Source of the DNA: an uncultured virus (IMG/VR IMGVR_UViG_3300020454_000007)
Taxonomy: Duplodnaviria > Heunggongvirae > Uroviricota > Caudoviricetes
Strand: one strand, 5' to 3'
DNA length: 64,000 nucleotides
IMG/VR virus record: IMGVR_UViG_3300020454_000007
Under the pieces are notes generated by a model. That model had not been told where the DNA came from. It worked only from the letters and a program-made list of their open reading frames with translations, and did no database searches. Below, one piece after another: positions 5,276 to 21,005 of the stretch; within the stretch, counting starts at the first letter, position 1; the number at the start of each line of letters is the position of its first letter. Position numbers and translations under genes: made by a program.

Positions 5276-5279
5276 AATT

Positions 5280-5754: not shown

Positions 5755-5790
5755 TGGAGTGTGTACGTCAATACTTATATTGTATGCATT

Positions 5791-6220: not shown

Positions 6221-6227
6221 ATTGTGA

Positions 6228-7184
6228 TCAAACAGACACAAGTTCCTTGGCAACAGCAACTGCTTTCTTCGCATACTGCATACCAGTACCAAAGTTAGCG
6301 CTGTTGAACTTACTCAAGCGCTGCTTGTACGTAAGACGGGAGACTTTAGGAGAGGTTTCTACCTCAGTCACAGCATTGATTGCATTCCAGACAGAGCCGG
6401 ATGCATATCTAGAGCCCATACCGTAGTGGTAAGCAGAGTTGAGCTGGCGATACTTGCGCATCTTGCTGAGGTCGCGGATGCCATAGGTGTCAGCAATGAA
6501 CTCAGCGAAGCTAGGCAGTTCAGTAGCAGCACAAGCTTTCAAGAACTCAGTGTCTTCCTCGAAAGATTGACGAGCAACGTCAATACTTTGGATCAGAGCA
6601 TCGAAGTTCTGTTCAGCCCCGCCAGTGTGGCGAACGCTTGCGTGACCACGGTTGTTGCCCATAGCAGCAGCAAGTGTGTTGCTACAGACAACCCGGACGT
6701 CAGTGAACATTGCACCGCAGCCGGTCTTACCGTCGTGACCTAGGTAACCGACGATCCGGCGACAAAGCTTGTCCCCTTCGACGATTTCCGTTGCCGCACC
6801 TTTGAGTGTGGCGGTAAAAGCGACTTTCGCTCCGTCTGCAAGTACGACGACGCTGTCCATGTCCGCCTCTTCGCGGATGAACTCCGCCATCCGCAGGAGT
6901 GAATGATTCTGGACGGTTTCGTATACGTCGGAAACTGCTCCGAGGAACTGCTGTGTATCAGCACGTACAACTCCGAAGGTGCCAGTTGGCTGGTCAATGT
7001 GCGGCAGATGGGTGTCTCCGTCGAGCCAAACTGGATAAGAAAGCTCTCGCTTCTCGACAGTGAAGAGTGCGTCTGCTGTTTCAAACGCTTCTCGCGCTGG
7101 AAGTGTGCCTTCGGTAACGGTTCCAAGACCGTGCCAGGCTTGCTCGTTGTTGCCGAACCAGCCAGAGGTGAAGTTTGCGGGCAT
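6228..7184 (-). CDS. DUF932/DUF945-family protein
   Basis: N-terminal AWHGLG, YETVQN, HDG, VRVVCSNTL, VRHT and WNAINAVTE motifs. Confidence 0.85.
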   Translation of the reverse strand: MPANFTSGWFGNNEQAWHGLGTVTEGTLPAREAFETADALFTVEKRELSYPVWLDGDTHLPHIDQPTGTFGVVRADTQQFLGAVSDVYETVQNHSLLRMAEFIREEADMDSVVVLADGAKVAFTATLKGAATEIVEGDKLCRRIVGYLGHDGKTGCGAMFTDVRVVCSNTLAAAMGNNRGHASVRHTGGAEQNFDALIQSIDVARQSFEEDTEFLKACAATELPSFAEFIADTYGIRDLSKMRKYRQLNSAYHYGMGSRYASGSVWNAINAVTEVETSPKVSRLTYKQRLSKFNSANFGTGMQYAKKAVAVAKELVSV

Positions 7185-7201
7185 TTGCCTTTCATATATT
7201 G

Positions 7202-7242
7202 AACACTTGATGAAATCCCGGCGTTAGCCGGGGGTGGCTGTT
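7202..7242 (-). repeat. Full copy of AACAGCC-hairpin-TGTT element
   Basis: Minus strand AACAGCCACCCCCGGCTAACGCCGGGATTTCATCAAGTGTT, 17 nt before the DUF932 ATG. Confidence 0.9.
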
Positions 7243-7318
7243 TTCTATTGCCAACCAACTGGTGCTGTCAATTTATTGTGCACGATTAAGAGCCAATTAA
7301 GTAACTAATTGCGTTTAC

Positions 7319-7615
7319 TCAAAAGTTTTCAAGGTCTATGATTTGCTGCAGCTTGTGGGCTTTTGAGCCGGGAGTGTATTGCCCGGTCATAAACATCTGC
7401 CTAATTTGTATATCGCTTCTTACAAGACGCTCAAAGTCAGTCGATATAAGGGCGTAACAATACTCACTAACGCTTATGCCTTTCATTGCGCACACGCTCT
7501 TAAGGAGGGCGTGACACTCAGGTGCCATATTGAAGTTGACCCGCTTACTTGCTAACAAATTCCTGGTGCAAATTTGATTGAGTGTATCAACACAGCTTTG
7601 TAGCGCTCGCTTCAT
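7319..7615 (-). CDS. Ribbon-helix-helix-like DNA-binding protein (CopG/ParG-like)
   Basis: KRVNFNMAPECHALLKSVCAMKGISVSEY fits the RHH strand-helix-G-S-helix pattern. Confidence 0.6.
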   Translation of the reverse strand: MKRALQSCVDTLNQICTRNLLASKRVNFNMAPECHALLKSVCAMKGISVSEYCYALISTDFERLVRSDIQIRQMFMTGQYTPGSKAHKLQQIIDLENF

Positions 7616-7767
7616 TTACATTTGTTGCCAGAGTGAGTAAATGAGTAGGCATTAATAATAGTTAGAAGTTAGAAGTGAGAAGATTTATTAAAAGCCACAG
7701 AACTTAACGTGGTTTTCGGTGGCTATGAAATCGCAGTGATACCAAGGGTTCTCAGCTATCAGTACCC

Positions 7768-7894
7768 TAAAAACCACGCAAACCGCACAAGTTCCCTTAT
7801 ATATTCCTTTTTTATACCCCTCCCCTCCTACTACTACTAATATTTATTTTGAAGGGTTAGGGAATTAGCGTGGCTAGTGTGGTTTTGTGGTTTT
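7768..7894. repeat. AACCAC/GTGGTT module, copy 1
   Basis: AAACCAC boxes, pyrimidine/AT-rich spacer, then three GTGG(C/T)T boxes. Confidence 0.75.
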
Positions 7895-7905
7895 CCGTGC
7901 TTGTC

Positions 7906-8619
7906 CTATCCAATGCTGTTTGGATCAACAGGCTGTATTGGTTTAAGTAGATCAGCAACCTTACGCTTGTAGTTAAAAACAAATTCGCCAAGACCCTCAC
8001 GGTCAGTCGTGCCGTCGACAGGGTTTGTGCCAAAAATCTGTTCACTACGGTCGCCACTCATAACGTGATCTTTGTACGATTCACGCAGAGCTTGGCTCTC
8101 AGCCATACGCGGTGAGTTCTTGATTGGTGGTGGTGGTGGTGCTTCAGGAGCTTCATCGCCACCTTTACCAGCAAGTGCCATCAATGCACCTTCTACGTCA
8201 GTAGCGGTGTTGAAGTTAGTGAAGTCTTTACCGCTGTCTTTTTCAAGAGAGCTATCAAAGACTGCACCAGCGTTTATATCAATGCCGCCTTCGTCTTCAC
8301 CTTGCTGCTTAAAGCCTTCAATCTCGTAAAAGTTACCAAGTCCATCAGCGACGATACCAGCGTCATGATCTGACTTAGTGGCATCAGATAGGCTGAGGCC
8401 ATAATCGGAGTAATCTGCTCCAGAGGATGCAGGTCTACGAGCTACAGCTTCGGTGTTGACTTCACCGCCGCCGTCCATCGGGTCAAACTGCTCAGAGATC
8501 TTAGAGCCACGTTGACGTACACGCTTTTGCTCAACAGGATTCTTGAGAGCCCGAACGGTTTGTGTATCTCTACCTTTACCAGCGACCTTAGAAATTAGGT
8601 CGTCTTTTGACATTGCCAT
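7906..8619 (-). CDS. Hypothetical acidic protein, possibly virion-associated
   Basis: 237 aa ORF; C-terminus resembles that of 8624..9442. Confidence 0.7.
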   Translation of the reverse strand: MAMSKDDLISKVAGKGRDTQTVRALKNPVEQKRVRQRGSKISEQFDPMDGGGEVNTEAVARRPASSGADYSDYGLSLSDATKSDHDAGIVADGLGNFYEIEGFKQQGEDEGGIDINAGAVFDSSLEKDSGKDFTNFNTATDVEGALMALAGKGGDEAPEAPPPPPIKNSPRMAESQALRESYKDHVMSGDRSEQIFGTNPVDGTTDREGLGEFVFNYKRKVADLLKPIQPVDPNSIG

Positions 8620-8623
8620 TTTC

Positions 8624-9442
8624 TTAAGCTCCGAAGTTAGATTTAGGACCGCGTGTAGGTGTGCCTGATAAGTTCAGTGCACTAGACACATTGAAGGAAT
8701 ATTTGTTCTTAAAATCATTGGCTGCTATTTCGTTGGTGTTGTCGATAGGGCTATCGGGAACAATGTCTTCAGTGCCTGGAGACAATCCATCAGTACTTTG
8801 ATCTGGCACCTCGTTAGTGGTGGGGGTTTCCATTCCCATTTCAGAGCTGCGTGTATCAAAAGGATCATCACCGGCTTTCTTGTGAAGACGGCTGCCTGTG
8901 ATACCTGCCTTGTAGTCGTCAAGCAGCTTTTCAGACTGCTGCATACGTTCAGAGTCTTTGACTTCAGGAACGATGACATCTTGAGTGTTCTGGGAAGGCC
9001 CCATGTCCTCACCGAAAGCCTTAAATGCTTTTGTTAGTTCATCAGTTGAGGTGTACTGCGAATCGATGTGGTCAAGAATGCCTTGAACATCATTTTTGCT
9101 ATTGATGTCCCCAATGCCTGCACCCTTAGCGTATTTACGCTGGTCGTTGTAATCAAGGCCGTGCTTGTTGTATAACTCAGCTGCGTGCTTGTTTGCATTA
9201 GCAACCCAAGAACCAGAGGCAGAAGCCCAGGCACGGTCAGCTTCAAATCGCTTATGGTCTCTCTCTGCAAATGAACCATTGCCTAATTCGGTACCATCTT
9301 TACCGCGATATTTGTGTTGGTAGTTGGGGCCTAGGTGCTTTGATTTCCAAGCATCTTCTCCGTAATGTCTTTCAAAGACATCACGAGCGTCACCACCTTC
9401 AGATCTGCCGCCGTAGCCAAAAGTATCTTTGTCCTTAGCCAT
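8624..9442 (-). CDS. Hypothetical protein, possibly virion-associated
   Basis: 272 aa ORF; TAGAAT at 9469-9474 upstream. Confidence 0.7.
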   Translation of the reverse strand: MAKDKDTFGYGGRSEGGDARDVFERHYGEDAWKSKHLGPNYQHKYRGKDGTELGNGSFAERDHKRFEADRAWASASGSWVANANKHAAELYNKHGLDYNDQRKYAKGAGIGDINSKNDVQGILDHIDSQYTSTDELTKAFKAFGEDMGPSQNTQDVIVPEVKDSERMQQSEKLLDDYKAGITGSRLHKKAGDDPFDTRSSEMGMETPTTNEVPDQSTDGLSPGTEDIVPDSPIDNTNEIAANDFKNKYSFNVSSALNLSGTPTRGPKSNFGA

Positions 9443-9466
9443 TACATCAGATAAGCAGTATTATCC

Positions 9467-9634
9467 TTATTCTAACGATGACCTTTCCATGCCAAAGTAG
9501 TCACGTACTGCTTCTTCAAGTTCTTTGTAAGCTTCATACCAGTCGTTTACAAGACCATGATGGGGAAGCACGTGATAGCGATACTCGTGCCAATCCATGA
9601 CATTATGGATCTTCTGTAAAGGAGGGTATTTCAT
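9467..9634 (-). CDS. Small hypothetical protein (55 aa)
   Basis: MKYPPLQKIH... portion of listed ORF 9467..9913. Confidence 0.45.
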   Translation of the reverse strand: MKYPPLQKIHNVMDWHEYRYHVLPHHGLVNDWYEAYKELEEAVRDYFGMERSSLE

Positions 9635-9912
9635 GAGAATGTTTATATAAGGGGCCGCCCCTCCGTAGCTAATGGAAGGGCGATCAATTAACAGGGTGGA
9701 AACTACAAAAAATCCCTGAACCTTTGAAGTTGGTGCCTGACGTAGTTCTTCTTTGGCACTCACAAATGCTAGCTCATAAGTATACCTATTAGGGTCCAAG
9801 TTATTGCGAGCAAAACAAAGGTGGTCCAGAGGATGAGTAAATCTGTGTCTTTCATTCTTATAAGAACTTGTGCAATATATACAATAGAGAGTGTAAACGA
9901 GTACGTAGAGCA

Positions 9913-10296
9913 ATGCCGTCGAGAGTTACTAGAACTGCTCATAAGCGGGGCTACAGAGATATCGTCTACAACATCAATCAGGACAAGTTTTACACTGATG
10001 CGGAAGGCGATTAGTTTGAAGAGATTTCAGTAACAGCTGACTCTGCTGGCTCGGGTGGCTCGGGTGGTCTGACAGAAGCAGAAGTCAATGCTTTGATTGA
10101 TACTGCGGATACGATTAGCCAATCCGAGATGGATGCAGCAAAGGCAACCAAGATCTGGTTGATGGGTGACGGGACTGACGACAGTTATCCAAATATCCGC
10201 AATCAGGTTAATCTGAACAATGTTGATTCCAGGTTAGTGTTGAAGTCAATCGTGTCTAACGACATCGAGACAGTGAATATTAATGGATTATCGTAA
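9913..10296 (+). pseudogene. Structural-type gene interrupted by in-frame TAG (10012-10014)
   Basis: TACAAT at 9880, ATG at 9913, 33 codons, TAG, then the same frame continues into ORF 10093..10296 (IWLMGDGTDDSY...SNDIETVNINGLS). Confidence 0.6.
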
Positions 10297-10376
10297 TTAA
10301 TCTGTAAGAGGAGGGAATGGACCAAGGCAGAGCTGCTTTATACGACGCCGAAGCGATCTATACAGCTCTGCGTCCG

Positions 10377-11033
10377 TCATCTTGCGTATTTGTTGAATAC
10401 ATTCTGAGCGTTCTTCACCCGACGATCCTCATGAGGCTCTGAAGGGCGGAAGAAATCGCGTCTAAGGTGCCTTGCAGCCCCCGCAGCATCCAATCCACCT
10501 AACTCGTCAAGAGAGTTGGTGTAGCCGACTAGAGAATAGCCAGGCTTTAGATCTTTCTTACCTAGATATTCGTCAGCAAAGTACTCAAGCTGAAAGTCCA
10601 TTGAGTTGGGATCGACCCCAGCATCAATGGCAGCTTGACGAGCAGCATCGTAAGCAATACGGCGATCACCTGTGTACTGGCTAATGCCTCGACCGGCCTT
10701 AGCCTTCTCTTCGACGATGTCTAAGTTCTGGAGAGTTGGGTCTCCAGTTTCTGTTTGCCAATTTCCAATGAGACCAGAAGCAGCTTCAGGTGTCATTGCA
10801 GAGATTTGGCCATCGGTATATTTCCTGATGCCATCTCCAGTAAGCCATTCATATGCCTTACCGACGTTATCGACACGAGGCGGTGCTTGATGCTTGGGTT
10901 GAATGTTAAAGCCACCGGCAGGCGCAGAATCGCCATAGGTATCCTTATACGCATCAACCCGCTGCGCCGCTTCTTGACGTGGGGTAATGCCTAAATGTTG
11001 GCCAACTGCTCGGAGGCCGCCCATTATGTCCAT
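10377..11033 (-). CDS. Phage tail lysozyme-like (Phage_lysozyme2) protein
   Basis: AASGLIGNWQTE...GRGISQYTGDRR...QLEYFADE...FFRP...RRVKNAQ. Confidence 0.8.
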   Translation of the reverse strand: MDIMGGLRAVGQHLGITPRQEAAQRVDAYKDTYGDSAPAGGFNIQPKHQAPPRVDNVGKAYEWLTGDGIRKYTDGQISAMTPEAASGLIGNWQTETGDPTLQNLDIVEEKAKAGRGISQYTGDRRIAYDAARQAAIDAGVDPNSMDFQLEYFADEYLGKKDLKPGYSLVGYTNSLDELGGLDAAGAARHLRRDFFRPSEPHEDRRVKNAQNVFNKYAR

Positions 11034-11074
11034 TGTAATTACAGAGATAAGGAATAAAGTGCTGAGCTAATGTT

Positions 11075-12766
11075 TCACGAGTTACTAAAGTTATGTCTTG
11101 AATTAAACATACCAGTTTTAGTACCTCTCTGTGTAGAGAATGGGTTGCTATTCTTATTAGCTAAGTCTTCCATAGTTGCTTTCGCATCGAAACGACGTAG
11201 CTCCCCTAGTTGATAACCAGGGTTAGTATTCATTTTTTCATATTGACCCTTGGTAATATCCAAGAAGTCAATTGGGTTTAGTTCAGGTGTTGGCTCAGGC
11301 TGGCCGTAGTACTGACCAGCAGAGGGGTTAGAAGGTGCGGAGGGCTGTAAAGCAGGTGGATTGGTGCTTGTAATCGTTGGCCTACCCGTGCCGCCAGCGG
11401 CTACAGGAGGCTTAGGTGCACCACCCACGGCAGGGTTCTTATCCCAAGAGAACCCACGATCTGGGTTGCTCTTAGTTGGACCCTTGTATGTAGGACTGAT
11501 AGGTCCATCCATAAAGTCACGTGGCTTTCCTGCCTGACTCAGGGTGTTGTTAAAGATTGCGCGTGTTGCTTTTGACTTAGAAACATCAGCCTTAGTTGGC
11601 TTAAAGTTAGGTGCGTAAGGAATACCAGGGTTCTTACCAACTTTCAGGCCCTTAGCGGCAGGGAAGAATTTGCTAGTACCAGGGGTAGCGAAGCCAGGTG
11701 CATTGACCGGCTTACTCAAACGTGACCTAGCACCCTTACCAACGTTAGTTTGTGTACGGGCAATATCGTTAATACGAGTTTGACTGAAGCCCATCGCCTT
11801 CATCCGATTGATATCGGATACTTCAAACTTATTCGGGTTCTTATCACCTTGCTTCCAGGCACTGCGCTTTGGATCACCACCTTTCTTTGCAGCTGGGCTG
11901 AAGTTAGTAAAGGGGTTAGCGCTTGCTGTCTTGAAGCCGAAGTTGCCAGTGGGCTTAGCTGGCTTCTTACCAGCAGCTATTGCTTTGTTGTATTGACCAA
12001 TTTTGCTACGTGCACTGGCCCAGTCACCTTTAGATCCACCAAACTGAGATTTCTGTTTGGTACTCAGCTGAGACCACTTAGTTCCAAAGTTCTGCTGAGC
12101 GAAGGCCATACCAGAGGTAGTGCCTCGACCACCACTATTAACAGTTGATTTCTGTTGAGTGAGTGGCTTGAGGTTGCCTTGTGCCTTAGCGATAGCAAGA
12201 GCACGAGCACCAGCAGCACCAATGTTCTTGCCAGCTGCTTGTTGCCTCTGAAGATGGAGGATATTCGCTGAATACTTAGCAGAAGGTTTGGCTGGAGTTT
12301 TAACAGCCGGTTTATGAATAGCAGGCTTATTGAAAGTAATACCAGCGTATCTGGAGTTACCTGCCGCCTGCTGGTTCTTTACGTACTGCTGATAACGACC
12401 AGTCTTCTTTAAGTGCGCAACATTCTGTGCGTACGTCGGCCTAGAGCTAGCAGGTGCAGCAGGCCGAGGTGAAGGTTTAGGTGCAGGAGCTGCATAACGA
12501 GTATTCCCTTTTGCACGTTGATTAGCAACGTACTGGTCATATCTACCAGTCGACTTTAAGTGCGCAATGTTCTGCGCATAAGTGGGTTTAGGAGCCGGTC
12601 TAGGAGCCGGTCTCGGCGCAGGACGCGGAGCAGGCCGGGGTGCCGGACGTGGCGCAGGCGCTGGCGCAGGTCTAGGCGCAGGCTTACTACGACTTGCTTG
12701 CCAGGCGTTATACCGGCCAGTTGCTTTTAAGTGCGCAATGTTCTGCGCTCTTGTTGGTCTTGCCAT
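11075..12766 (-). CDS. Long basic Pro/Ala/Lys-rich repeat protein
   Basis: 563 aa; three PTxAQNxAHLKxTGRY repeats and PRPA tandem repeats; TACAAT at 12795-12800. Confidence 0.75.
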   Translation of the reverse strand: MARPTRAQNIAHLKATGRYNAWQASRSKPAPRPAPAPAPRPAPRPAPRPAPRPAPRPAPKPTYAQNIAHLKSTGRYDQYVANQRAKGNTRYAAPAPKPSPRPAAPASSRPTYAQNVAHLKKTGRYQQYVKNQQAAGNSRYAGITFNKPAIHKPAVKTPAKPSAKYSANILHLQRQQAAGKNIGAAGARALAIAKAQGNLKPLTQQKSTVNSGGRGTTSGMAFAQQNFGTKWSQLSTKQKSQFGGSKGDWASARSKIGQYNKAIAAGKKPAKPTGNFGFKTASANPFTNFSPAAKKGGDPKRSAWKQGDKNPNKFEVSDINRMKAMGFSQTRINDIARTQTNVGKGARSRLSKPVNAPGFATPGTSKFFPAAKGLKVGKNPGIPYAPNFKPTKADVSKSKATRAIFNNTLSQAGKPRDFMDGPISPTYKGPTKSNPDRGFSWDKNPAVGGAPKPPVAAGGTGRPTITSTNPPALQPSAPSNPSAGQYYGQPEPTPELNPIDFLDITKGQYEKMNTNPGYQLGELRRFDAKATMEDLANKNSNPFSTQRGTKTGMFNSRHNFSNS

Positions 12767-12859
12767 TCTGAATAATATTTAGCGCCGTCATTTCATTGTA
12801 GTTAGAAATATTAATTAGATACGATTAAGAGAAGTAATTATAAATTAGGGCGTTGATAG

Positions 12860-13915
12860 GTGTCTCCCCGTTATACGAATACGCATAATGCGAGAGTAGC
12901 TGATACTGCTCGCTTATTTACATCTCCAGAAGCTATAAAGGCAAGGGCATCAGATGATGCTCTTGTAAAAGAGATTTACGAGCTTGGCTACATAGACCAC
13001 CTGCTTGGTGGCTTTAAACATTTGACTGACAGGGGGATCGACGGTCGTACCAATCGTCCGCATACAACCTTGGGGTTAGGCACAGATGATCCTGCAGTAA
13101 TGTCGCAGGCTGAGCAGAACCAGATGCAGATCAACGAGGTTAAGAATGCATTGAGCGGCAATGAAATCATTGACAGCTATGCAAATCAAATTAACCCCGA
13201 AGAAGCTGCATACATCAAAGGTTTAATTGCTAAGCACGTACTAGGTACAGATAGAGCAAAAGTCGGTGGACTGGGTACAGCCAACCGTCTCTATCCTTCA
13301 GAGCACCCTTTAGCAGGTGAAGTCATACCCGTTGATATGACGCCAGGGGATAGGTATGACCGTGCGGACAAGATATTTTTAGACGTGGCAGGGATGGTAG
13401 ACCCTGATACTGGTGCACAGCTGACGGGTAACGAGTTAGATGCAATGCATCGTGAACCGGCAGCAGAACGACCAGACTTGATTGCTGTTCCTAGCAACAT
13501 CAAGATGGGAGGTAAATCAATGAATCAATCTGACGGTAGACGTCAGGGTGATGCATTAGCAGATAGCCGCCGCACGCGCCTTGTGCGCTTGCAGGGCGAA
13601 CGATTTTTGGATGAAAATGATATCCCCGCTAAACAACGCGGGGGCGTAGATACAATAACTAACCGTGAGAATCGTATAGCTAATAAGATGACACGGCAGG
13701 AGCTGCTTGATGACTATGTTGTCCGTCAAGCGTTAGAGAAAGAAGCAGATGCCATCCTCGATGAACTTCGAGGGGGGCGCTTCGCTGGAGACGTGATGAT
13801 GCCATACATTAGTCAAGGACGTAGAGATAGCCCAGGCAGCAGCAAAGTAGTAATTGTTGATGCTGACCCAGGCTCTTATGTAAGGGTGAACGGCAACGGT
13901 AAGAAAGCTGCTTAA
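12860..13915 (+). CDS. Hypothetical protein, possible degenerate HNH-like motif
   Basis: 351 aa; DAMH...PSNI...MNQ loosely resembles a His-Me finger. Confidence 0.6.
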   Translation: MSPRYTNTHNARVADTARLFTSPEAIKARASDDALVKEIYELGYIDHLLGGFKHLTDRGIDGRTNRPHTTLGLGTDDPAVMSQAEQNQMQINEVKNALSGNEIIDSYANQINPEEAAYIKGLIAKHVLGTDRAKVGGLGTANRLYPSEHPLAGEVIPVDMTPGDRYDRADKIFLDVAGMVDPDTGAQLTGNELDAMHREPAAERPDLIAVPSNIKMGGKSMNQSDGRRQGDALADSRRTRLVRLQGERFLDENDIPAKQRGGVDTITNRENRIANKMTRQELLDDYVVRQALEKEADAILDELRGGRFAGDVMMPYISQGRRDSPGSSKVVIVDADPGSYVRVNGNGKKAA

Positions 13916-14106
13916 GTCAGCTTTCCGTCGACGGTACCCTTGAATGGCACTGACGTATATCCGTCGAAAGTTCCTTCAAGAACTGGGATGTGGATTTCAC
14001 GAGTGACATAGTCTACGCCTTCTGACGTAAGACCAGTCACCATCGGAGTCCCGTCTTCTTTGTAAGAGGTATACAGGCCGTACTTAGATTTCTTAATTTC
14101 AAACAT
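13912..14106 (-). CDS. Small hypothetical protein
   Basis: MFEIKKSKYGLYTSY... start chosen downstream of hairpin 14136-14155. Confidence 0.65.
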   Translation of the reverse strand: MFEIKKSKYGLYTSYKEDGTPMVTGLTSEGVDYVTREIHIPVLEGTFDGYTSVPFKGTVDGKLT

Positions 14107-14162
14107 AATGAGCGTAGCGAATAAAAGTAAAAGAAGGCTCCTCGTTAGAGGAGCCGTGTGTA

Positions 14163-14663
14163 TCACCAGAGAGCTGCAACTTCTGCAGGATCTGGTTGGT
14201 CGTTCATAGCGACTGGTGCTTCGTCGACAGGAGCTGCTTGAGTAGCAGCAGCTGGAGTCATGTGCACGGGACGACGAGCGTTACGTGCAGACTTAGAGGC
14301 ACTATCTTTTTTAGGGATGGGGCCTAAGCCGCCAGTCATGATCTGGACTTGAGCCATCTCAACCAGAGGACGCTGGCGCATCTGAAGCTCACCATCTTTG
14401 TTGGTGAAAGTTTCAGAGACAGACTGCAAGCGACCAGTGAGGGTAACTTGTGAACCTGAGCGCAGGTATCCAGCTTGGAACAAGCGAAGGAGACCGTCGC
14501 TGTCTGTGAATTTGACATCCATCTCAGCACCATCGCGAACGAGGGTAGAGATGATGGTCACTGACAGAAACTCGCCATTACGACCGTTCTTAACGTCAGA
14601 GTAGCTGATCCTTCCCTGAACAGTGAAGGTGTTGAATGAAGCGTAGTTTGTGTAGTCAGACAT
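14163..14663 (-). CDS. Single-stranded DNA-binding protein-like (OB fold)
   Basis: NTFTVQGRI...YLRSGSQVTLTGRLQS...FTNKDG, flexible Ala/Pro tail with acidic/aromatic end. Confidence 0.7.
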   Translation of the reverse strand: MSDYTNYASFNTFTVQGRISYSDVKNGRNGEFLSVTIISTLVRDGAEMDVKFTDSDGLLRLFQAGYLRSGSQVTLTGRLQSVSETFTNKDGELQMRQRPLVEMAQVQIMTGGLGPIPKKDSASKSARNARRPVHMTPAAATQAAPVDEAPVAMNDQPDPAEVAALW

Positions 14664-14723
14664 TGAATGTGATTTGAAAAAGAACATTAAAGAGAAACCC
14701 CGGCGTTAGCCGGGGTAGGGCTG

Positions 14724-14960
14724 TTATTCAGCCTTTAGGTTTGCAAGGTATGCACCTAGATCGTGTGTCTTCTCACCGACGACGGCGAGCACTAGACCCA
14801 CGTTGTTCAAACCTTTGACTGTCCGGCGACGTACGTCAGCCCAGTCGATGTTCTTAAAGAACGCGACTGCATCGTCCACAGGTGGAAACGATGGGGTGGC
14901 AGTTTCATCCTCAACGATGAATGATCCATCAACAGGATCAAGCTGAGATTGAGTGATCAT
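14724..14960 (-). CDS. Small hypothetical protein (cassette-like unit)
   Basis: ORF bounded by repeat elements; TAA stop overlaps the element's TAACAGCC. Confidence 0.7.
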   Translation of the reverse strand: MITQSQLDPVDGSFIVEDETATPSFPPVDDAVAFFKNIDWADVRRRTVKGLNNVGLVLAVVGEKTHDLGAYLANLKAE

Positions 14961-15031
14961 GTGTCAGTTATATGATGTTGACATTAAACAAAGGCCCGGC
15001 ATTAGCCGGGTTGGCTGTTAGATCATTCCAG

Positions 15032-15436
15032 TTAGAAAGTGAAGTCGTCGTCACCGAGACTTACACTTTGGAATGTTTCATAGGCAGCCTTGAGCTTGCC
15101 AAGGTCAACTGCCCAGCTAAGGGCATTCATGCCTTTGCCTTTGTCAAGTTCCTTCTCTGCCACGTCTTCGTGCCAGGTGATCATCTGATCAAGGATTTTG
15201 AGGACCATAAGCTTGTGAACCATTGGGTGAGCAATGGTGTCAATAGCAGCATCTGTATGTTCGTCAACGAACTTAAGCATCTGCTCAGCCGTATGTCCGG
15301 CATATATTGCCTTCTCTGCCTGCTTCTCATCTTCAGCTTCTTGGTTAAGTTCACCAAGGACGTTGTCCGCAATCTTTTCAAGGAAAAGATCTTCGAGAGC
15401 TGAAGAAGAGATGCTGTTTGGGACCGAAGCTGTCAT
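15032..15436 (-). CDS. Acidic hypothetical protein (cassette-like unit)
   Basis: 134 aa ORF bounded by repeat elements. Confidence 0.75.
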   Translation of the reverse strand: MTASVPNSISSSALEDLFLEKIADNVLGELNQEAEDEKQAEKAIYAGHTAEQMLKFVDEHTDAAIDTIAHPMVHKLMVLKILDQMITWHEDVAEKELDKGKGMNALSWAVDLGKLKAAYETFQSVSLGDDDFTF

Positions 15437-15494
15437 AGAGTGATTGTAAAGAACACTAAGAAAAGCTCCGGTGTTAGCCGGAACTGGCTGTTAC

Positions 15495-15698
15495 TCAGAG
15501 GTAATCAACTTCGAGATAGCAGCTAGCTGCATCGGAGATGAAATCACCGACGAGTTCGTGATCTACCGGCGCACTGCCGTTAGACATCACGTGATAATCA
15601 CACTCATCTACGAGGTAACGCCATGCGTCCTCGGTTTGAGGTTGGATGAGAGCCACACCAGCGACTGCAGTTGTGGATTGAATCTTGAAATCTGCCAA
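15495..15698 (-). CDS. Small hypothetical protein (cassette-like unit)
   Basis: 67 aa ORF bounded by repeat elements. Confidence 0.65.
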   Translation of the reverse strand: MADFKIQSTTAVAGVALIQPQTEDAWRYLVDECDYHVMSNGSAPVDHELVGDFISDAASCYLEVDYL

Positions 15699-15757
15699 GA
15701 TATATCATTTGTAAAGAACAAATGAAGAAAATCCCTGCGTTAGCAGGGAGATGGCTG

Positions 15758-16129
15758 TTAGTTAAATGTGAAGTATGTGTCACATTTCTTGGTGAACAAT
15801 CCAGTGATTGCTGCTTCATTGCCATTGAGGTTCAAAGCAACGTCACTACCGTCGAACTCCCAGGAGCCGACCATGACTGGTTGCTTGTTTGCACTCATTG
15901 CAATTGAAACGTTGCCGTTATGGTCGAAGCCCATAAACGACCCATCGTTTGACTCAAGTACTGCAAACACTTGGCCAGGGCCTTGGTTGCAGTGAAGCTT
16001 GAAGTCAGAGGCAGGGATCTCTACGCTCTTAGCAGGCGGTGCGACAATCAATAGGAACAGAAGTCCTACCAATGATCCACAGCCGATAAAGAAGAGATCG
16101 TTGCCGATAGTCTTGAGTACTCTCTTCAT
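15758..16129 (-). CDS. Hypothetical membrane-anchored or secreted protein
   Basis: Hydrophobic N-terminal segment LFFIGCGSLVGLLFLLIVAPPAKS. Confidence 0.7.
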   Translation of the reverse strand: MKRVLKTIGNDLFFIGCGSLVGLLFLLIVAPPAKSVEIPASDFKLHCNQGPGQVFAVLESNDGSFMGFDHNGNVSIAMSANKQPVMVGSWEFDGSDVALNLNGNEAAITGLFTKKCDTYFTFN

Positions 16130-16365
16130 CAGTCGAAGCTCCCAAAGCCAATGGCAGGGGAGAGCATTCCTGATTCAGGGCGAGAACCCCACCGACCAGC
16201 GGTGTGGATTTCGTACTCATAGTGGTTGCCCCACTTTTCTTCGTAGTGCTCGACTAGATCTTCAGCTCGATCGTAAGATCCAGCTGAGTATGACATTTGT
16301 GTCCACACAGCTTCAGGATCTGAAGTTCTGCGGCACCAGAGCACGTATTCTCCAGGAATAGACAT
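16129..16365 (-). CDS. Small hypothetical protein
   Basis: 78 aa ORF coupled TGATG to the next gene. Confidence 0.7.
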   Translation of the reverse strand: MSIPGEYVLWCRRTSDPEAVWTQMSYSAGSYDRAEDLVEHYEEKWGNHYEYEIHTAGRWGSRPESGMLSPAIGFGSFD

Positions 16366-16404
16366 AAGGTTGAAAGCTATTGATCAAGGAAAAAAGATCC
16401 GCTG

Positions 16405-16629
16405 TTAAGCGGATCTAAGATGTTCAGTTAGACGGATGTACTCAGCGTCAATCTCAACTTGAAGAGGATCTTCTGTGAGATCGAAGTACTCGTCTAGGTT
16501 GTCAAGTTCTATATCGTGCAGGAAGTCTTTCACCTCAGCAAAGCTGTTGAAAGCTGCCCAGATATTCTCGTATTTGACAGTAAACCTCGTCCTAGGTGGA
16601 CGATGTTGTTGGATGATGAGAGTCAGCAT
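16405..16629 (-). CDS. Small hypothetical protein
   Basis: MLTLIIQQH...; TGATG coupling; ends in TAAC-loop hairpin with T tract. Confidence 0.6.
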   Translation of the reverse strand: MLTLIIQQHRPPRTRFTVKYENIWAAFNSFAEVKDFLHDIELDNLDEYFDLTEDPLQVEIDAEYIRLTEHLRSA

Positions 16630-16787
16630 CAAAGTGAGCCCCACAGAGGCTCATGGTTCTCTTCATCGAAGCCGATGTCAGAGAACGCTTGTTGTGCTTC
16701 GTAAGAAACACGAGCAGATTGCTCTTCCAACCAACTGAGCATTTCTGCGTCGTTGGTGATCTCATCAGGGATAAAAGTGATTGACAT
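16629..16787 (-). CDS. Small acidic hypothetical protein (52 aa)
   Basis: Manually found MSITFIPDEITNDAEMLSWLEEQ...; ATG 13 nt after element TGTT. Confidence 0.65.
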   Translation of the reverse strand: MSITFIPDEITNDAEMLSWLEEQSARVSYEAQQAFSDIGFDEENHEPLWGSL

Positions 16788-16841
16788 AAGAATGGATATG
16801 AACAGTAAACAAACACCCGGCGTTAGCCGGGTGGAGGGCTG

Positions 16842-17027
16842 TTAGTTGCCGTTTAAGAACTCAGAGAGTTCATCCATGTACTGTTGCTTAGTCTCAAAGT
16901 GACGTCCGTGAATGACACAGGGGAACTCACGCTTGCGCGGAGCCTGCTGTTTCATTGAAAGGCGAACGTCAAAGACAGTAAGTCCTTCTTGGTCAGCAAC
17001 TTGTTGGATGTAAGGATTGAAAGTCAT
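16842..17027 (-). CDS. Small hypothetical protein (cassette-like unit)
   Basis: MTFNPYIQQVADQEG...; stop overlaps TAACAGCC. Confidence 0.7.
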   Translation of the reverse strand: MTFNPYIQQVADQEGLTVFDVRLSMKQQAPRKREFPCVIHGRHFETKQQYMDELSEFLNGN

Positions 17028-17129
17028 AAAATCATTGTAGAAACAATGAAAGAAACTCCCGGTATTTACCGGGAATTGTTGTTCCCCTTCTCTATTCATA
17101 TAAAATAGGGAGAGTTAGTAAAAGGTATT

Positions 17130-17441
17130 GTGAATAACTTACGTCTAGCTGGAGATCGCCTTGGCAGGCTGGATGATGCTATCCAGACCGCCATCAGACA
17201 GAAGCTGTACGGTGAACGGCCAGACGGAAGTTATGGAGATGGCAATCTTGCAGGTGCAAAAGCCATCGTTGCTAGCATCTTGCACGGCTCAGGTCAGCAG
17301 TTGACTGATGACGCACTTGAGCGTGCAATATATCTAGCGGGCACCAGAGGATTACAAGCAGGGGCTGTAACTGGTGCTGGTGTAGGTGTTGCTAGCCTGT
17401 TCGCTGATGAACAGGAGCCAGGCCAGCTACCGTTGAGTTAG
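17130..17441 (+). CDS. Hypothetical protein, late-type gene inserted in early array
   Basis: TAAAAT at 17101; N-terminal RLAGD; Gly/Ala-rich C-terminal segment. Confidence 0.65.
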   Translation: MNNLRLAGDRLGRLDDAIQTAIRQKLYGERPDGSYGDGNLAGAKAIVASILHGSGQQLTDDALERAIYLAGTRGLQAGAVTGAGVGVASLFADEQEPGQLPLS

Positions 17442-17644
17442 CCCATAGCTGTATCTGTTTCACGATCTGCTTGCTTAACAGGGTTGACGATTTCGTCACT
17501 GCGATAAGCAACACCGATGCTGCCTACAGCATCGAACTCGTGATCGATAAGCGCTAGCTCAACAATGTTGTACTTGCCGGACTCCTCTTTGGGAGCATGA
17601 CGTACACAGAGGGTACGGTTCTTGTGACCGAACAGTTTGATCAT
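17438..17644 (-). CDS. Small hypothetical protein
   Basis: MIKLFGHKN...; ATG 15 nt after element TGTT. Confidence 0.65.
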   Translation of the reverse strand: MIKLFGHKNRTLCVRHAPKEESGKYNIVELALIDHEFDAVGSIGVAYRSDEIVNPVKQADRETDTAMG

Positions 17645-17700
17645 AATGAAATGTGATTGAACATTAAAACAACCCCCTGCGTTAGCAGGGGATGGGCTGT

Positions 17701-17844
17701 TTAAAAAGGACACTCTTCGTCTAGCTCGTAGATGTCCCAGTCTTCGCTGTCTTCTAGTGAATCCAGGTAGGACTGAGCTGCATCTACAGTGAAGAAGCAC
17801 TTGTTGATGTAGCGTGTCTCGCTGAAGACGTGGTACGTTGTCAT
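17701..17844 (-). CDS. Small acidic hypothetical protein (47 aa, cassette-like unit)
   Basis: Manually found MTTYHVFSETRYINK...EECPF exactly between two elements. Confidence 0.65.
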   Translation of the reverse strand: MTTYHVFSETRYINKCFFTVDAAQSYLDSLEDSEDWDIYELDEECPF

Positions 17845-17901
17845 TGTGGAAAATATGTTTAACACAAAGAAAAACCCCGGTATTAACCGGGGTAGGGCTG
17901 T

Positions 17902-18111
17902 TTATGCATCAGCCTCTTTGTCGTCAAAGGGCCAAGGATTGGTGCGGAAGCACTCAAGCCAGGCCCAGACGAGATTTGTCATTGGACCTGCTTGCACAAG
18001 TGTGTAACTTGGGTCGTGAGCAGGGTCAAGGATTGCGTGGTACTGCAAGTCACGTGGAGTTGCGAAAGCAACGTAGTCGTGCTGCACTTGGTACCACATT
18101 GGTGTTGTCAT
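17902..18111 (-). CDS. Small hypothetical protein (first unit of array)
   Basis: 69 aa ORF between two elements. Confidence 0.65.
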   Translation of the reverse strand: MTTPMWYQVQHDYVAFATPRDLQYHAILDPAHDPSYTLVQAGPMTNLVWAWLECFRTNPWPFDDKEADA

Positions 18112-18260
18112 TTAGAGTGTGAATTATGTGAACACAAGCCAAAGAACCGGCGTTAGCCGGTGAGGCTGTTGGCTGTTAATAGTGAAAAAAGCCGGTGCCC
18201 AGCCGCGCAGCGGGTGCTATCAGCCACCTGCTTCTTTATATATACCCGCCCCTATTTACT

Positions 18261-18320
18261 CTCGCCAATACTCGCCTACCCTCGCCAATCTTCGCCAGGA
18301 TTCGCCAATCCTTGCCAACA
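18261..18320. repeat. Six tandem decamers (consensus YTCGCCAATN)
   Basis: ctcgccaata ctcgcctacc ctcgccaatc ttcgccagga ttcgccaatc cttgccaaca. Confidence 0.85.
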
Positions 18321-18420
18321 GATTGAGAGATGGAGTGTAATCAGGGGAGTGAATAGAGACTGTCGACTTGCCTACAGCGGTGGCACAGGGAGGTGCCGAG
18401 AGTGTAGAGCAAAGGGAGAT

Positions 18421-18480
18421 AACCTACAGTCGTAGGGCAGAAGCTTACAGACGTAGGTGGAGAAACCTACAGACGTAAGG
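18421..18480. repeat. Three ~21 bp repeats, each an imperfect palindrome CCTAC-AGAC-GTAGG
   Basis: cctacagtcgtagg, cttacagacgtagg, cctacagacgtaag. Confidence 0.8.
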
Positions 18481-18992
18481 TTGAACAGATATAAACAGAT
18501 GAATGTCACACGATAAGACGTAAGTAACCTAAAGCTAAGCTGAGGTTATAGATCTTATGTGATGACAGAAGAGAAGCGACACACGAACACAAGTAACGAT
18601 ACGAAAGCTTATCGCTTAAGTTGATAACTTATGATTTGTATTGAAAGATAACTTGTGTAGTGTCGCTGAACGGTCGTTGATTACAACAGTTAACTCTCGC
18701 TAAACGATTGTGAAACGAAGGTTAAACCTTAGTTATCTGTCAATCGAAGCAGGAGTTACTCGTTAGTTATATCAACAGACCTAGTTTATTTTTTTTGTTC
18801 CACCGACAGTCGGGGAACTGAGGGTATTAAAGGTGTCAAAAATTTTATAGCACTTTTGACCCCCTATAGCGGTTTTATAGGTACCCCAACGGTCACCATT
18901 GTTTAAAAGTACGTACGGCTACTATGAAAGGCTGTGTAACCCAAGTTTCACGAGCACCGTGCGAAGTCCTAACAACGGTATAAAACGTGGTC

Positions 18993-19122
18993 AAAGCCAC
19001 AGAACCACACTAAACCACGGTGGTTTCCTATATATCCCTCTCGTAATTCCCCTCTCTCTATATAGGGTATTTTTTAAGTTGGTTTATAGTAAATAGTGTG
19101 GCTAGCGTGGTTGCGTGGTTTT
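18993..19122. repeat. AACCAC/GTGGTT module, copy 2
   Basis: aaagccac agaaccac aaaccac ... gtgtggct gcgtggtt gcgtggtttt; same orientation as 7768-7894. Confidence 0.75.
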
Positions 19123-19428
19123 ATGGAAGACTTTATTGCAAGGGAGAAACGGAAGCGTGCTCTAAGTAGAGAGATTTGTAAGCCGGGTTGGGAGTGGAAT
19201 GAAGCTATCGGCAAGTGCGTGCTTCCTTATGCAGCGGTTGGTCCGGCACCATCTATGGATGGTCCTGGTAGTACTGAAGAGCCGGAGAGTACCCCAAACG
19301 CCTCCATTGAGCCCACAGAAGATGCCATTGGTGCGGAGAAAAATAAACGTCGTGCAAAAGCACAAAAGTCCGCACAAAATGGGCAACAGAATAAAATGCC
19401 TGTAAGTGCACCTAATAGTATTTCATAG
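19123..19428 (+). CDS. Hypothetical protein
   Basis: MEDFIAREKR...CKPGWEWNEAIGKC; first gene of the plus-strand block. Confidence 0.6.
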   Translation: MEDFIAREKRKRALSREICKPGWEWNEAIGKCVLPYAAVGPAPSMDGPGSTEEPESTPNASIEPTEDAIGAEKNKRRAKAQKSAQNGQQNKMPVSAPNSIS

Positions 19429-19457
19429 AATATAGAAATACATCCAGATATAGAAGA

Positions 19458-21005
19458 ATGAACTGGAACCCAATCGACTGGGCTAAAGGCCAACAGCAAG
19501 GTACTACTAATGAGTTGAAAAAGCTTAATCAGCAAACTCAAAGCAAGACTGGTAGAGCGCGTGCTGCGTCACAGAATCCTTACTCAAGTCAGTACAAAGG
19601 ATCCCCAATGAGTGGAGGTAGTGTTGCATCAGGCACTGCTAACGCATTACTTTATCAGGGTGCAGATGTAGCAGCTCAGGCAATTGCTCCTATGGCAGTA
19701 CGTGGAGCAGCTGTAGTGTTGGGTGCAGATATGAAAAATTATGACCGTCGTGCTAAAGGATTAAAACCTCTTCAAGTGAAGAGTGTAGGAAGTACAGACT
19801 TTAACGTTGCTACTCCAGAAGGTAAGGCAGCATATGAAAAAGCATTAAAGAATGTAGGCCCGAAAGTGCTACCAAGCAGCTCGATTGAAGAGTTAAGGAA
19901 AAGAAGTGATCAAGAGAGGGCAAAATATCAAACTCCAGTTGTAGAAGATCCAGCACTTGCTCCAACATCTCCCCCAGTAACCCCGCCAGATACCCCCACT
20001 GGTAGAGACACAGCTCCACCATCTGACCCAAATAACACGGGTGCCAAGGGAACTGCTATGGGATTGAGCGGTGGGTCCATTGCGACACCGTTTGATGGCA
20101 AGGCATTCGAGGCAATGCTGGGGAATTACGGAATCCAGATGGCAAATCCCTTCGATTCCAACGTTCAACCCGGCACTTTAGGTGGAGATAACCAGAGAAG
20201 GCTTGCTCCTGGTGAAATTAAGGGCGCATTTAACGAAGATGGCCAATTAAATCCAGGATATACCCGCGAAACTTTGATTGATGGCCAAGATGTCACCGAA
20301 AATCTGTACGTTGACACTAATAAACCGCAAGAACAGGGCATTGTTAGTAAGGGTGAAGCCGATCGTACCCTCGATTCCAGTGATTCTGAGGAATTAGAGA
20401 TTGGTGTCGACGGATATTACGGCGGTGGACTGTCAGATCGCAGTCGTGCCTTCCTCGATTACGACGGTCCTGGTGGATCAATGATGGCATTGCGTGCTGC
20501 CAACGCATCTCAAGGTATTGCCAAACAAGGTGGTCAAGCATTTGCAGTAGATGCTGAAGGTAATTACCAGAAGATCACTGATGAAGGCTATGAAATGCGC
20601 AAGAGCGGTAAGATCGATGCACAAACTCTGCTTGACGAGCATCTCGCCCAAGTTCCTGGCAAAGTAGTTGATAAAGCAGTGAATGAAGGTGATGCTGATG
20701 TGGTTACTGAACCAGGTGCAGCTGAAGTTCCAACATTAACTGAGACAGTTATCGATGGTTCCGATATGTCCTCTACTACTTACACAGGTGAGGAAGAAAT
20801 CGACGAATTCTTTGCAAACACTCGTAAGAATATCCAAGGTAATGCCGCTTCAACTCCACCATCAACACCTGATACTCCTGCAGTAGACCTTGGTTCTAGA
20901 GATACTCCACTGAATCAACGATATACACTTACACCAGAAGAAGTTGACGAAGGATTGAAGAACGGAACGTTGGATCAGATGCAATCTCAACTGATGAGTT
21001 TGTAA
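19458..21005 (+). CDS. Hypothetical low-complexity protein, putative internal virion protein
   Basis: 515 aa; TAGAAT promoter at 19426. Confidence 0.7.
   Translation: MNWNPIDWAKGQQQGTTNELKKLNQQTQSKTGRARAASQNPYSSQYKGSPMSGGSVASGTANALLYQGADVAAQAIAPMAVRGAAVVLGADMKNYDRRAKGLKPLQVKSVGSTDFNVATPEGKAAYEKALKNVGPKVLPSSSIEELRKRSDQERAKYQTPVVEDPALAPTSPPVTPPDTPTGRDTAPPSDPNNTGAKGTAMGLSGGSIATPFDGKAFEAMLGNYGIQMANPFDSNVQPGTLGGDNQRRLAPGEIKGAFNEDGQLNPGYTRETLIDGQDVTENLYVDTNKPQEQGIVSKGEADRTLDSSDSEELEIGVDGYYGGGLSDRSRAFLDYDGPGGSMMALRAANASQGIAKQGGQAFAVDAEGNYQKITDEGYEMRKSGKIDAQTLLDEHLAQVPGKVVDKAVNEGDADVVTEPGAAEVPTLTETVIDGSDMSSTTYTGEEEIDEFFANTRKNIQGNAASTPPSTPDTPAVDLGSRDTPLNQRYTLTPEEVDEGLKNGTLDQMQSQLMSL

Follow-up and report, generated by a model that had tools for sequence, protein, structure and literature searches.

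The stretch of DNA examined here, hereafter the window, is a 64,000-nt record of an uncultured virus (IMG/VR IMGVR_UViG_3300020454_000007), and our subject is a family of short hairpin elements lying between its small genes. The window is phage DNA. Its TerL protein shares 54% amino acid (aa) identity with that of Synechococcus phage S-EIV1, the closest named phage, and virion and tail-fibre proteins, a ribonucleotide reductase, an IF-1 homologue, a thioredoxin and a DUF932 protein are also encoded. The window belongs to an S-EIV1-like marine cyanophage. Genes run leftward at 1-18111 and rightward from 19458 on. The leftward arm begins, immediately downstream of a control region, with an array of 13 small genes on the minus strand (13912-18111), most of which are ORFans without family matches. 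Starting from the control region, the array genes lie at 17902-18111 (69 aa), 17701-17844 (47 aa), 17438-17644 (68 aa), 16842-17027 (61 aa), 16629-16787 (52 aa), 16405-16629 (74 aa), 16129-16365 (78 aa), 15758-16129 (123 aa), 15495-15698 (67 aa, TTG start), 15032-15436 (134 aa), 14724-14960 (78 aa, referred to as 78b), 14163-14663 (166 aa, SSB-like), and 13912-14106 (64 aa, DUF7468). The 68-aa gene is grouped with a 103-aa open reading frame (ORF) on the plus strand at 17130-17441, antisense to the array.

The repeated hairpin family is real. Between 4868 and 18177, the minus strand contains 10 full copies, nine at 14672-18177 and one at 7191-7245, and 4 hairpin-only copies. A full copy reads, in order, (T)AACAGCC, 2-6 nt, a GC-rich stem arm, a CTAACG hexamer (with the variants TTAATA, CTAACA, and CTAATG), the other stem arm, a T-rich tract, TGTT(C), a leader, and a start codon. 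AACAGCC occurs 18 times in the window, 10 of them on the minus strand (one at 7242, the others at 14725-18177, two of them in tandem at 18177/18170). All ten window copies are recovered by a covariance model trained on them (E <= 1.1e-6), and this model also finds the hairpin-only copies at 4868-4889, 5285-5304, and 16378-16415 (E 0.15-0.23); neither the plus strand nor the structural half of the window gave a match. The hairpin-only copy at 14136-14155 was picked up by a terminator scan. The AACAGCC listing, the strand reading, and the covariance model together reproduce the copy count (ten full, four hairpin-only) and the layout of the original prediction, which had been made from the letters of the window. 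The pattern CTAAYR-N16-17-TGTY has 10 matches in the window against 2.46 expected, a number reached in 0 of 100 shuffles; 8 of these are elements and the other 2 are chance matches on the plus strand, and two elements fall outside the strict pattern, one with the loop TTAATA at 17902 and the variant at 17083. The predicted distance of 16-17 nt between the loop and TGTT holds in every full window copy, with TGTC in one of them, and the start codon follows TGTT by about 13-20 nt, close to the 13-19 nt proposed. The predicted overlap of the upstream TAA stop codon with the box is found in 5 of 8 array copies, in two different registers.

The individual copies, all on the minus strand, differ in detail. 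Element 1 (18120-18177; 51.8 bits) precedes the first gene of the array and contains the tandem AACAGCC AACAGCC, the hairpin ACCGG-CTAACG-CCGGT, and TGTTC. Element 2 (17850-17905; 61.3 bits) has the loop TTAATA and ends in TGTTA, and element 3 (17649-17704; 60.2 bits) has the stem CCCCTG/CAGGGG. They are followed by a variant element at 17032-17086 (47.5 bits), with a GAACAAC box, the loop region GTAAATAC, and TTGTTTC, and by element 5 at 16789-16846, which scores 61.0 bits with the covariance model. The hairpin-only copy at 16378-16415 (E 0.23) has the loop TTAACA and a T6 tail, lacks TGTTC, and contains the stop codon of the upstream gene inside its loop. Further along the array are element 6 (15707-15762; a covariance-model match with the stem TCCCTG/CAGGGA), element 7 (15441-15495; loop CTAACA, 66.6 bits), element 8 (14969-15022; loop CTAATG, with TGTC in place of TGTT), and element 9 (14672-14728; a covariance-model match preceding the SSB-like gene). 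The hairpin-only copy at 14136-14155 reads GGCTCCT-CTAACG-AGGAGCC with a T-rich tail. Outside the array, the full element at 7191-7245 (57.8 bits) precedes the DUF932 gene (assigned by Pfam), and two hairpin-only copies lack a T tract, one at 5285-5304 (E 0.15), directly followed by TATACT and an ATG, and the other at 4868-4889 (E 0.17).

We characterized the anatomy of the element in 43 distinct copies from the window and related contigs, copies from one contig or lineage not being independent of each other. The hairpin has a perfect stem of 5-9 bp, a 4-nt loop, and a mean energy of -13.1 kcal/mol. The loop letters TAAC are near-invariant, and CCGG/CCGG predominates in the four stem pairs that adjoin the loop, with arms varying to CCTG/CAGG, GCGCG/CGCGC, and CCCCC/GGGGG. 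Among 50 model matches from 18 non-redundant sources, in an alignment that was fitted to the model and so favours structure, double changes are found in 7 of 7 stem pairs and 85.7% of the stem cells pair, compared with 65.7% in shuffles (0 of 500 as high) and 35-52% in slid-alignment controls. When only the ten window copies are aligned (MAFFT), 90% of the stem cells pair versus 75% in shuffles, and double changes are present in 4 of 7 pairs; the folding z-scores of these ten copies range from -2.2 to -4.2. The predicted stem covariation is thus borne out, and it demonstrates a hairpin formed by nucleic acid and not a duplex protein site. In many copies of the near-complete relatives G044 and G045, the closing C-G of CTAACG is replaced by T-A (TTAACA). 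Since this outer pair covaries, the true loop is a UAAC tetraloop, and the CTAACG reported as a loop hexamer stands as a conserved sequence but not as a hexaloop.

The hairpins resemble intrinsic terminators. Within the 8 nt past the stem, at least 5 T are found in 29 of 43 copies and at least 4 in 37, with 3 or fewer in the remaining 6. A terminator scan of 13500-19600 gives 28 sites against 5.2 expected, and all ten full window copies pass the scan, each with a GC-rich hairpin and a U-rich tract. Termination is the best-supported activity that we infer for the element, given its structure and tail, its location right behind stop codons, and the surplus of sites in the terminator scan. The 5' box of the AACAGCC type starts at varying positions, -13 to -21 from the loop, and is absent in 10 of 43 copies. 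Its AACAG is able to pair with the tail; in strong terminators, an A-tract pairs with the U tail. An outer AACA/UGUU helix is predicted in 6 of the 10 window copies with differing partners, and we dropped it, since both sides are invariant and thus show no covariation, and copies without the box still keep TGTTC. Homogenisation of stems within contigs was also considered and is not significant (identity of 0.675 within contigs versus 0.64 between them; 268 of 2000 permutations as high). No Rfam family matches the element at gathering scores, and the one match is at chance level (E 0.37).

The downstream half of the element is held at a fixed distance from the loop. The G of GTTC is at +23 (16 copies), +24 (19 copies), or +25 (1 copy) relative to the first loop letter, 36 of the 43 copies in all, and its position shows no relation to the stem length of 5-9 bp. 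GTTC is preceded by T in 36 of 36 anchored copies, and the neighbouring spacer is free to vary. As the linear spacing between loop and TGTTC is fixed whatever the stem length, recognition of duplex DNA, as of two promoter elements, is easier to reconcile with it than recognition of a folded RNA. Start codons, which were called automatically, are located at +39 to +48 in 36 of 43 copies. With the 43 starts aligned, the leader is nearly free of G and has no Shine-Dalgarno sequence and no -10 box. In the window as well as in a related contig, L031, an element precedes the first array gene, and two diverged paralogous copies in a host genomic island (see below) keep the hairpin and TGTTC with a diverged spacer. 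The fixed loop spacing, the variable ATG distance, the element ahead of the first gene, and the TGTTC kept in the host paralogues together suggest that the 3' half contains the start signals of the next gene. The TGTTC half may be a promoter of unfamiliar type that overlaps the terminator.

In metagenome contigs, a scan for the exact pattern yielded 56 loci, on which the covariance model was then run, as the original prediction had proposed for related genomes, and the family was found in many marine phage contigs. These relatives are mostly short metagenome contigs. L031 has 6 copies, L023 has 5-6, and L053 has 4; L021, L059, L033, L017, L019, and L022 have 2-3 copies each, and further contigs have a single copy. 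At 99.8-100% identity, L041, L058, and L062 represent the phage of the window itself and were left out of the relatives. The near-complete viral genomes G044 (73 kb) and G045 (78 kb) have about 10 and 18 model matches, respectively. A 26.7-kb contig in an alphaproteobacterial metagenome-assembled genome bin (L072 / G003:C33, hereafter c33) has 12 hairpin copies, mostly without the 5' box. Window proteins match c33 at 37-58% aa identity, so it represents a more distant relative of the phage and is probably a mis-binned cyanophage contig. A broad viral scan with a 15-base core pattern returned mostly chance matches among those listed; of the 80 loci that were scanned, only 3 contained model matches. 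G001, the virus record closest to the window, has no element, its sequence not spanning the array, and megablast of 13000-19000 against phage records gave no match. The covariance model found no element in the S-EIV1 genome. S-EIV1 (L002) contains, on its minus strand at ~3440-3500 and 3735-3800, two copies of a different box-plus-hairpin unit of similar layout, which consists of a stop codon, an 18-nt conserved box, and a hairpin with the loop TGCAAAC and covarying stems, without a T tail.

Comparisons among these relatives show that genes change at the elements. We used a pairwise flank screen with a loose identity threshold, from which only the strongest pairs are considered here. L017 and L023 do not differ in the upstream gene or in the 5' box. 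L023 then has 228 extra bp made up of one hairpin core and one small gene and bounded by a 20-nt direct repeat of the core; past the junction of this insert, the likeness between the two drops to about three quarters. The upstream gene is common to L018 and L032 (89% identity), and the downstream gene to L032 and L023 (91%). With E denoting the element, the triad L018, L032, L023 therefore reads A-E-B, A-E-C, D-E-C, and the switch is located between hairpin and spacer. L022 is the same as L021 over the entire element and goes over to a different gene within the leader or first codons, with a third copy supplying the other parent. At the protein level, the gene order in L031 is 47', a new gene, 61', 52', 74', 78', 123', and the 68' gene with the opposite-strand ORF'. 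Compared with the window order given above (69, 47, 68 with the opposite ORF, 61, 52, 74, 78, 123, 67, 134, 78b, SSB-like), L031 lacks the 69-aa gene, has the new gene in another slot, and carries the module of the 68-aa gene and the opposite-strand ORF at a new place; this ORF, 75% identical at the aa level in L031, moves with the 68-aa gene. L026 lacks 78b, the gene preceding the SSB-like gene, and G045 (locus L217) has homologues of the 78-aa and 52-aa genes in reversed order. Between the window and L031, 3 of 3 junctions without an element are kept and 4 of 6 junctions with an element are broken, the numbers (9 junctions) being small. The content and order of genes had been expected to change at element boundaries if the array is cassette-like, and this is what we observe, with insertions, deletions, replacements, and relocations whose breakpoints fall inside the elements. 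The spacer and TGTTC move with the downstream gene, and the 5' box moves with the upstream gene. The crossover windows differ, being in the hairpin core for L017/L023 and for L018/L032/L023 and at the leader or ATG for L022/L021, with none at G/TT. Crossovers at differing points fit homologous recombination or template switching on short repeats and not integron attC chemistry.

The element is also found in cyanobacteria. The hairpin core occurs in only 2 of 41 picocyanobacterial genomes, so it is not a host repeat family. One picocyanobacterial genome, G010 (2.43 Mb, ~63% GC), contains a low-GC stretch (44-57%) that starts right after adjacent tRNA-Tyr and tRNA-Thr genes. Three element copies are located in this island (C1 ~1,843,100-1,856,000; loci L093 and L094), two of which precede paralogous ORFans, one of these being split into ORFs of 104 and 137 aa. 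No homologue of a window protein and no recombinase homologue was found in the island. A PIN-PhoH gene is also present there. A Synechococcus single-cell genome contains two hairpin-core copies, one on contig C58 and one on C79; about 1.3 kb from the C58 element, a homologue of the G010-island ORFan is found. An element common to phages and host islands fits the movement of element-plus-gene modules, and its distribution suggests that the element works with host machinery.

Weighing these results, we consider it slightly better than an even chance that the elements are composite intercistronic regulatory cassettes, each made of a terminator and a start region that probably bears a promoter, and that they double as recombination linkers. 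One half of the cassette would be an RNA hairpin of the intrinsic-terminator type, with a GC stem of 5-9 bp, the UAAC tetraloop, and a U-rich tail; in the lineage of the window, it would include the 5' (T)AACAGCC box, which often provides the stop codon of the upstream gene and could pair with the tail. The other half would be the start region of the next gene, with the TGTTC box 16-17 nt from the loop, a G-poor leader without a Shine-Dalgarno sequence, and, after a further 15-25 nt, the ATG. Each small early gene may then be an insulated stop-start module, with the second half acting as a promoter that overlaps the terminator. The unit of about 40-55 nt recurs between unrelated genes and so provides short homology patches, and recombination or template switching in these patches would insert, delete, replace, and relocate modules between phages and into host islands. 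The fused terminator and promoter had been among the models of the original prediction and is, in this general form, the best reading, but no extracytoplasmic function (ECF) sigma factor and no phage RNA polymerase were found, and the variant with an N4-type hairpin promoter is not supported.

Several observations weigh against the composite cassette, most of them against its promoter. No sigma-70-type -35/-10 pair was detected within the elements or close to them (the scan gave 1 site resembling a promoter, on the opposite strand, versus 6.8 expected), and no -10 box appears in logos anchored on TGTTC or on ATG. No ECF or other extra sigma factor was found among the window proteins with Pfam, NCBIfam, and PHROGs, and no phage RNA polymerase was found in the window. 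The phage has a single sigma factor, of the cyanobacterial RpoD type. In 21 picocyanobacterial genomes, the two-part motif does not rise above background, which gives no sign of a host regulon. Copies without TGTTC still have the conserved loop, and a -35 role alone therefore cannot explain the conservation of the loop. In G044 and G045, TGTTC is looser (TGTYC, TGT, or absent). With no sigma-70-type promoter, ECF sigma, or phage RNA polymerase found, we treat the TGTTC half as a candidate promoter. On the terminator side, T tails are weak in 14 of 43 copies, and the T run in c33 often does not abut the stem, so termination at some copies may be weak or factor-dependent. The RNA assemblies of four runs contain one 166-nt contig within the SSB-like gene, with no joints and no informative ends. 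Other start signals were tried and rejected. A TAnAAT-like hexamer is found 6 nt before the ATG in three copies, as a leaderless mRNA might have, and no such box appears across the 43 ATG-aligned starts. Reading TAnTGT as a primary-sigma -10 box is at odds with the conserved positions, and so are the cyanobacterial LexA, NtcA, and Pho boxes.

We regard it as rather unlikely, though the strongest of the alternatives, that the elements are RNA-level intercistronic sites in one long early transcript, where the hairpin, perhaps with the 5' box in a boxA/boxB-like arrangement, would be the target of a protein from phage or host, such as an antiterminator, a processing nuclease, or a stabiliser, and TGTTC would be a processing point creating the next leader. 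The covariation establishes a nucleic-acid hairpin, conservation of the loop extends to copies that have neither TGTTC nor a T tail, and ten serial terminators would need internal promoters or antitermination. Upstream of the array there is also a region that could plausibly serve as its single promoter; a terminator-like hairpin comes after it, and the region is found in L031 as well. These points are countered by the fixed linear distance from loop to TGTTC over stems of 5-9 bp and by the dispensable 5' box, which is missing from 10 of 43 copies and from most copies of c33; moreover, no candidate RNA-binding protein and no Rfam family match were identified. It is distinctly unlikely, in our judgement, that the elements are plain intrinsic terminators whose TGTTC, leader, and 5' box are conserved merely through recombinational copying of an intergenic block. 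This would explain why the hairpin and T tail are the most widely conserved part, why G045 copies are mostly textbook terminators with a loose TGTTC, why standalone copies with a hairpin and T tract exist, and why AACAG can pair with the tail as the A-tract of strong terminators does. However, it does not account for an element that precedes the first gene of the array, for the T of TGTTC in 36 of 36 anchored copies beside a variable spacer, for copies without a T tail (L016, L023_201, c33) that keep the hairpin and TGTTC at the same distance, or for the host-island paralogues that keep TGTTC across a diverged spacer.

A further explanation, which we consider very unlikely, is that the elements are site-specific sites of an integron-like or Xer-like phage cassette system, where the small tyrosine recombinase of the lineage would exchange strands at the hairpin. 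The core site of this system would be the asymmetric 6-nt centre, flanked by the conserved inverted CCGG arms, and could act in duplex DNA or in a folded single strand. The tyrosine recombinase mentioned in the original prediction is present: a divergent tyrosine recombinase, of which the window contains the N-terminal part, is encoded by an ORF at 63350-64000 (plus strand) cut by the window end. In tblastn, this ORF matches a 259-aa protein of G045 (E 5.6e-22) and a 268-aa protein of G044 (E 1.9e-24), which exceed the Pfam PF00589 cut-off (32.6 and 32.0 versus 27.1 bits). These full-length homologues in both near-complete relatives indicate that the lineage may be temperate, and the recombinase may be simply the phage integrase. 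Cassette indels, replacements, and relocations at the elements, crossovers of which several map inside the 14-20 nt hairpin core, and the elements in a tRNA-flanked host island would all be expected of such a system. On the other hand, at least one crossover is outside the core, in the leader or first codons, and none is at G/TT. Sequence-specific binding of the arms would be abolished by their free covariation (CCTG/CAGG, GCGCG/CGCGC, CCCCC/GGGGG). The recombinase passes only the general PF00589 model, with no near-cut-off family in NCBIfam; its best match there is an archaeal XerA model (23.8 versus 220 bits) whose description also names integron integrases. Its gene is tens of kb from the arrays, which together with the lack of an NCBIfam match makes a site-specific contribution unlikely. 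No recombinase homologue was found in the host island, and no joined or excised forms were found among the assembled contigs examined.

The comparison with integrons leads in the same direction. An attC site is an imperfect R''-L''/L'-R' dyad of about 57-141 bp with extrahelical bases and AAC...GTT ends; exchange takes place at G/TT of the 3' core site, and the whole site moves with the upstream gene. The cyanophage elements are similar in being repeated sites after small array genes, in their AAC...GTT ends, in a structure that is more conserved than the stem sequence, and in cassette-wise variation. In contrast, they are 40-45 nt long and form perfect short hairpins with a conserved loop and no bulged bases, their spacer and TGTTC follow the downstream gene, and their crossovers are in the core or leader and not at G/TT. 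No integron-type integrase was found beside the array, and each gene appears to carry its own start signals. The element thus differs from attC/IntI in three defining features. The recombination-site model of the original prediction survives as cassette-like variation and not as an integron or attC mechanism, given the crossovers off G/TT, the perfect short stems, and a recombinase without a family match. We give little credence to the idea that the hairpin cores are exchange sites of a recombinase-run cyanophage cassette system that also delivers cassettes to tRNA-flanked picocyanobacterial islands; if true, it would be an integron-like platform outside bacteria, unrelated to IntI/attC.

Partial resemblances to other regulatory systems were also found. 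T4 has intercistronic hairpins with extra-stable tetraloops of the C(UUCG)G type, and these, like intrinsic terminators in general, resemble the element in their GC stem, in a fixed tetraloop with C-G as its closing pair, in the U-rich tail, and in lying directly behind stop codons of the early region; the cyanophage loop is UAAC and not UUCG or GNRA, and the element has a downstream box at a fixed distance and belongs to a family with shared flanks. Promoters of ECF sigma factors of the SigR/SigH type have AAC and GTT/CGT motifs about 16-18 nt apart. In 36 of 43 copies, the AAC of the loop and the GTT of TGTTC form AAC-N18/19-GTT on the gene strand (GAAC-N17-CGTT on the reverse strand), a spacing of 18-19 nt that agrees with the SigR/SigH type. 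Unlike these promoters, the element has its AAC in a hairpin loop that is conserved without a GTT partner, and neither an ECF sigma in the phage nor a host regulon was found. N4-type promoters are used by a giant virion RNA polymerase and consist of a template-strand hairpin with a 3-nt loop centred near -12. This type is not supported, as the largest ORF of the window is 893 aa, no DxDGD is present in any frame, the loop is 4 nt, and the hairpin is ~40 nt before the ATG. A lambda-type nut site consists of a linear boxA and a boxB hairpin with a conserved loop that is bound by an N-like antiterminator. The layout of the element is similar, with a linear box and a conserved-loop hairpin, but there are at least 10 sites per cyanophage array, the linear box is dispensable, and no N-like protein was recognised.

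The closest known parallel in mode of action, by analogy, is the promoter-early stem-loop (PeSL) of T4-type myoviruses. PeSLs have been described as terminator/promoter cassettes in RB49/phi1, T4/PST, and KVP40/nt-1 (PMC2839356, PMC4122927), and one of these studies maps their crossovers to the loop, to the side of the stem-loop, and to the stretch from the -10 box to the ATG (PMC2839356). Both systems consist of small cassettes of a stem-loop terminator and start signals between ORFans in plastic regions, in both the indels and replacements among relatives cross over inside the cassette at several positions including the stem-loop, and both produce transcriptionally insulated modules, the insulation being predicted for the cyanophage. 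A further hallmark of PeSLs is the excision of mini-circles between adjacent cassettes. The sequence, the phage lineage, and the promoter type appear to be new. The element occurs in an S-EIV1-like cyanophage lineage with a picocyanobacterial host and also in a host genomic island. It lacks the sigma-70 -35/-10 consensus that characterizes the PeSL promoter and has no Shine-Dalgarno sequence. It is a shorter unit, with a UAAC tetraloop, a fixed-distance TGTTC, and a stop-overlapping AACAGCC box. In the cyanomyovirus S-PM2, dense PeSL arrays were sought in one study and not found (PMC4503421). Intergenic repeats carrying promoters are also described for halovirus HF2 (PMC8707807). The likeness there, within the accessible portion of the account, is that of repeated viral intergenic sequences acting as promoters, a role that we infer for the cyanophage; HF2 is an archaeal virus with AT-rich repeats, and that portion shows no hairpin-loop architecture. 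The literature searched, with subscription journals outside its coverage, contains no description of the cyanophage motif.

Linker-mediated modular shuffling has so far been documented only in T4-type myoviruses. The composite cassettes would represent the same evolutionary device built from different parts in an unrelated, little-studied cyanophage lineage, with comparative support from many environmental genomes. The element marks a plastic, ORFan-rich early region and the unit in which genes move. Its presence in a tRNA-flanked low-GC picocyanobacterial island provides a sequence tag for tracing the transfer of cassettes from phage to host. If the TGTTC side is a promoter, it would define an unknown promoter class in the infection of marine Synechococcus.

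The control region upstream of the array (18230-18340, minus strand) contains TTGGCGAR-like repeats and a TATATAAA box and is conserved in L031. Six repeats with an exact 10-bp period are found at 18275-18340 (minus strand), between the divergent gene arms, and are followed by the TATATAAA box. They could be an operator array, iterons, or an origin. A separate terminator-like hairpin is found near this region, at 18190-18204. At the downstream end, the array is abutted by a 351-aa ORF (12860-13915, plus strand), which is 42% identical at the aa level to its counterpart in L026 and is thus a real gene; it has no match in PDB, Pfam, NCBIfam, or PHROGs. An HNH-like nuclease identity for this ORF was rejected, because the atlas leads to it are at noise level (about 0.8).

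Further features are found away from the array. The sigma factor gene (37719-38654, plus strand) scores above the NCBIfam cut-off for cyanobacterial RpoD/SigA (403 versus 384.5 bits). A near-consensus TTGACA-N17-TATACT is located ahead of it at ~37660-37695, and an HNH endonuclease gene (40044-40418) is adjacent. The IF-1 homologue (2786-3013, minus strand; Pfam eIF-1a, E 6.8e-16) is of note beside leaders without a Shine-Dalgarno sequence. A second repeat family of ~100 nt consists of GTGGTTTCCTATATAT, a pyrimidine-rich stretch, and a triple GTGGYT at the end, with three copies in the window, at 7790-7905 (plus strand), 19020-19135 (plus strand), and 43655-43800 (minus strand), and one copy in the relative L031, at 3500-3640.

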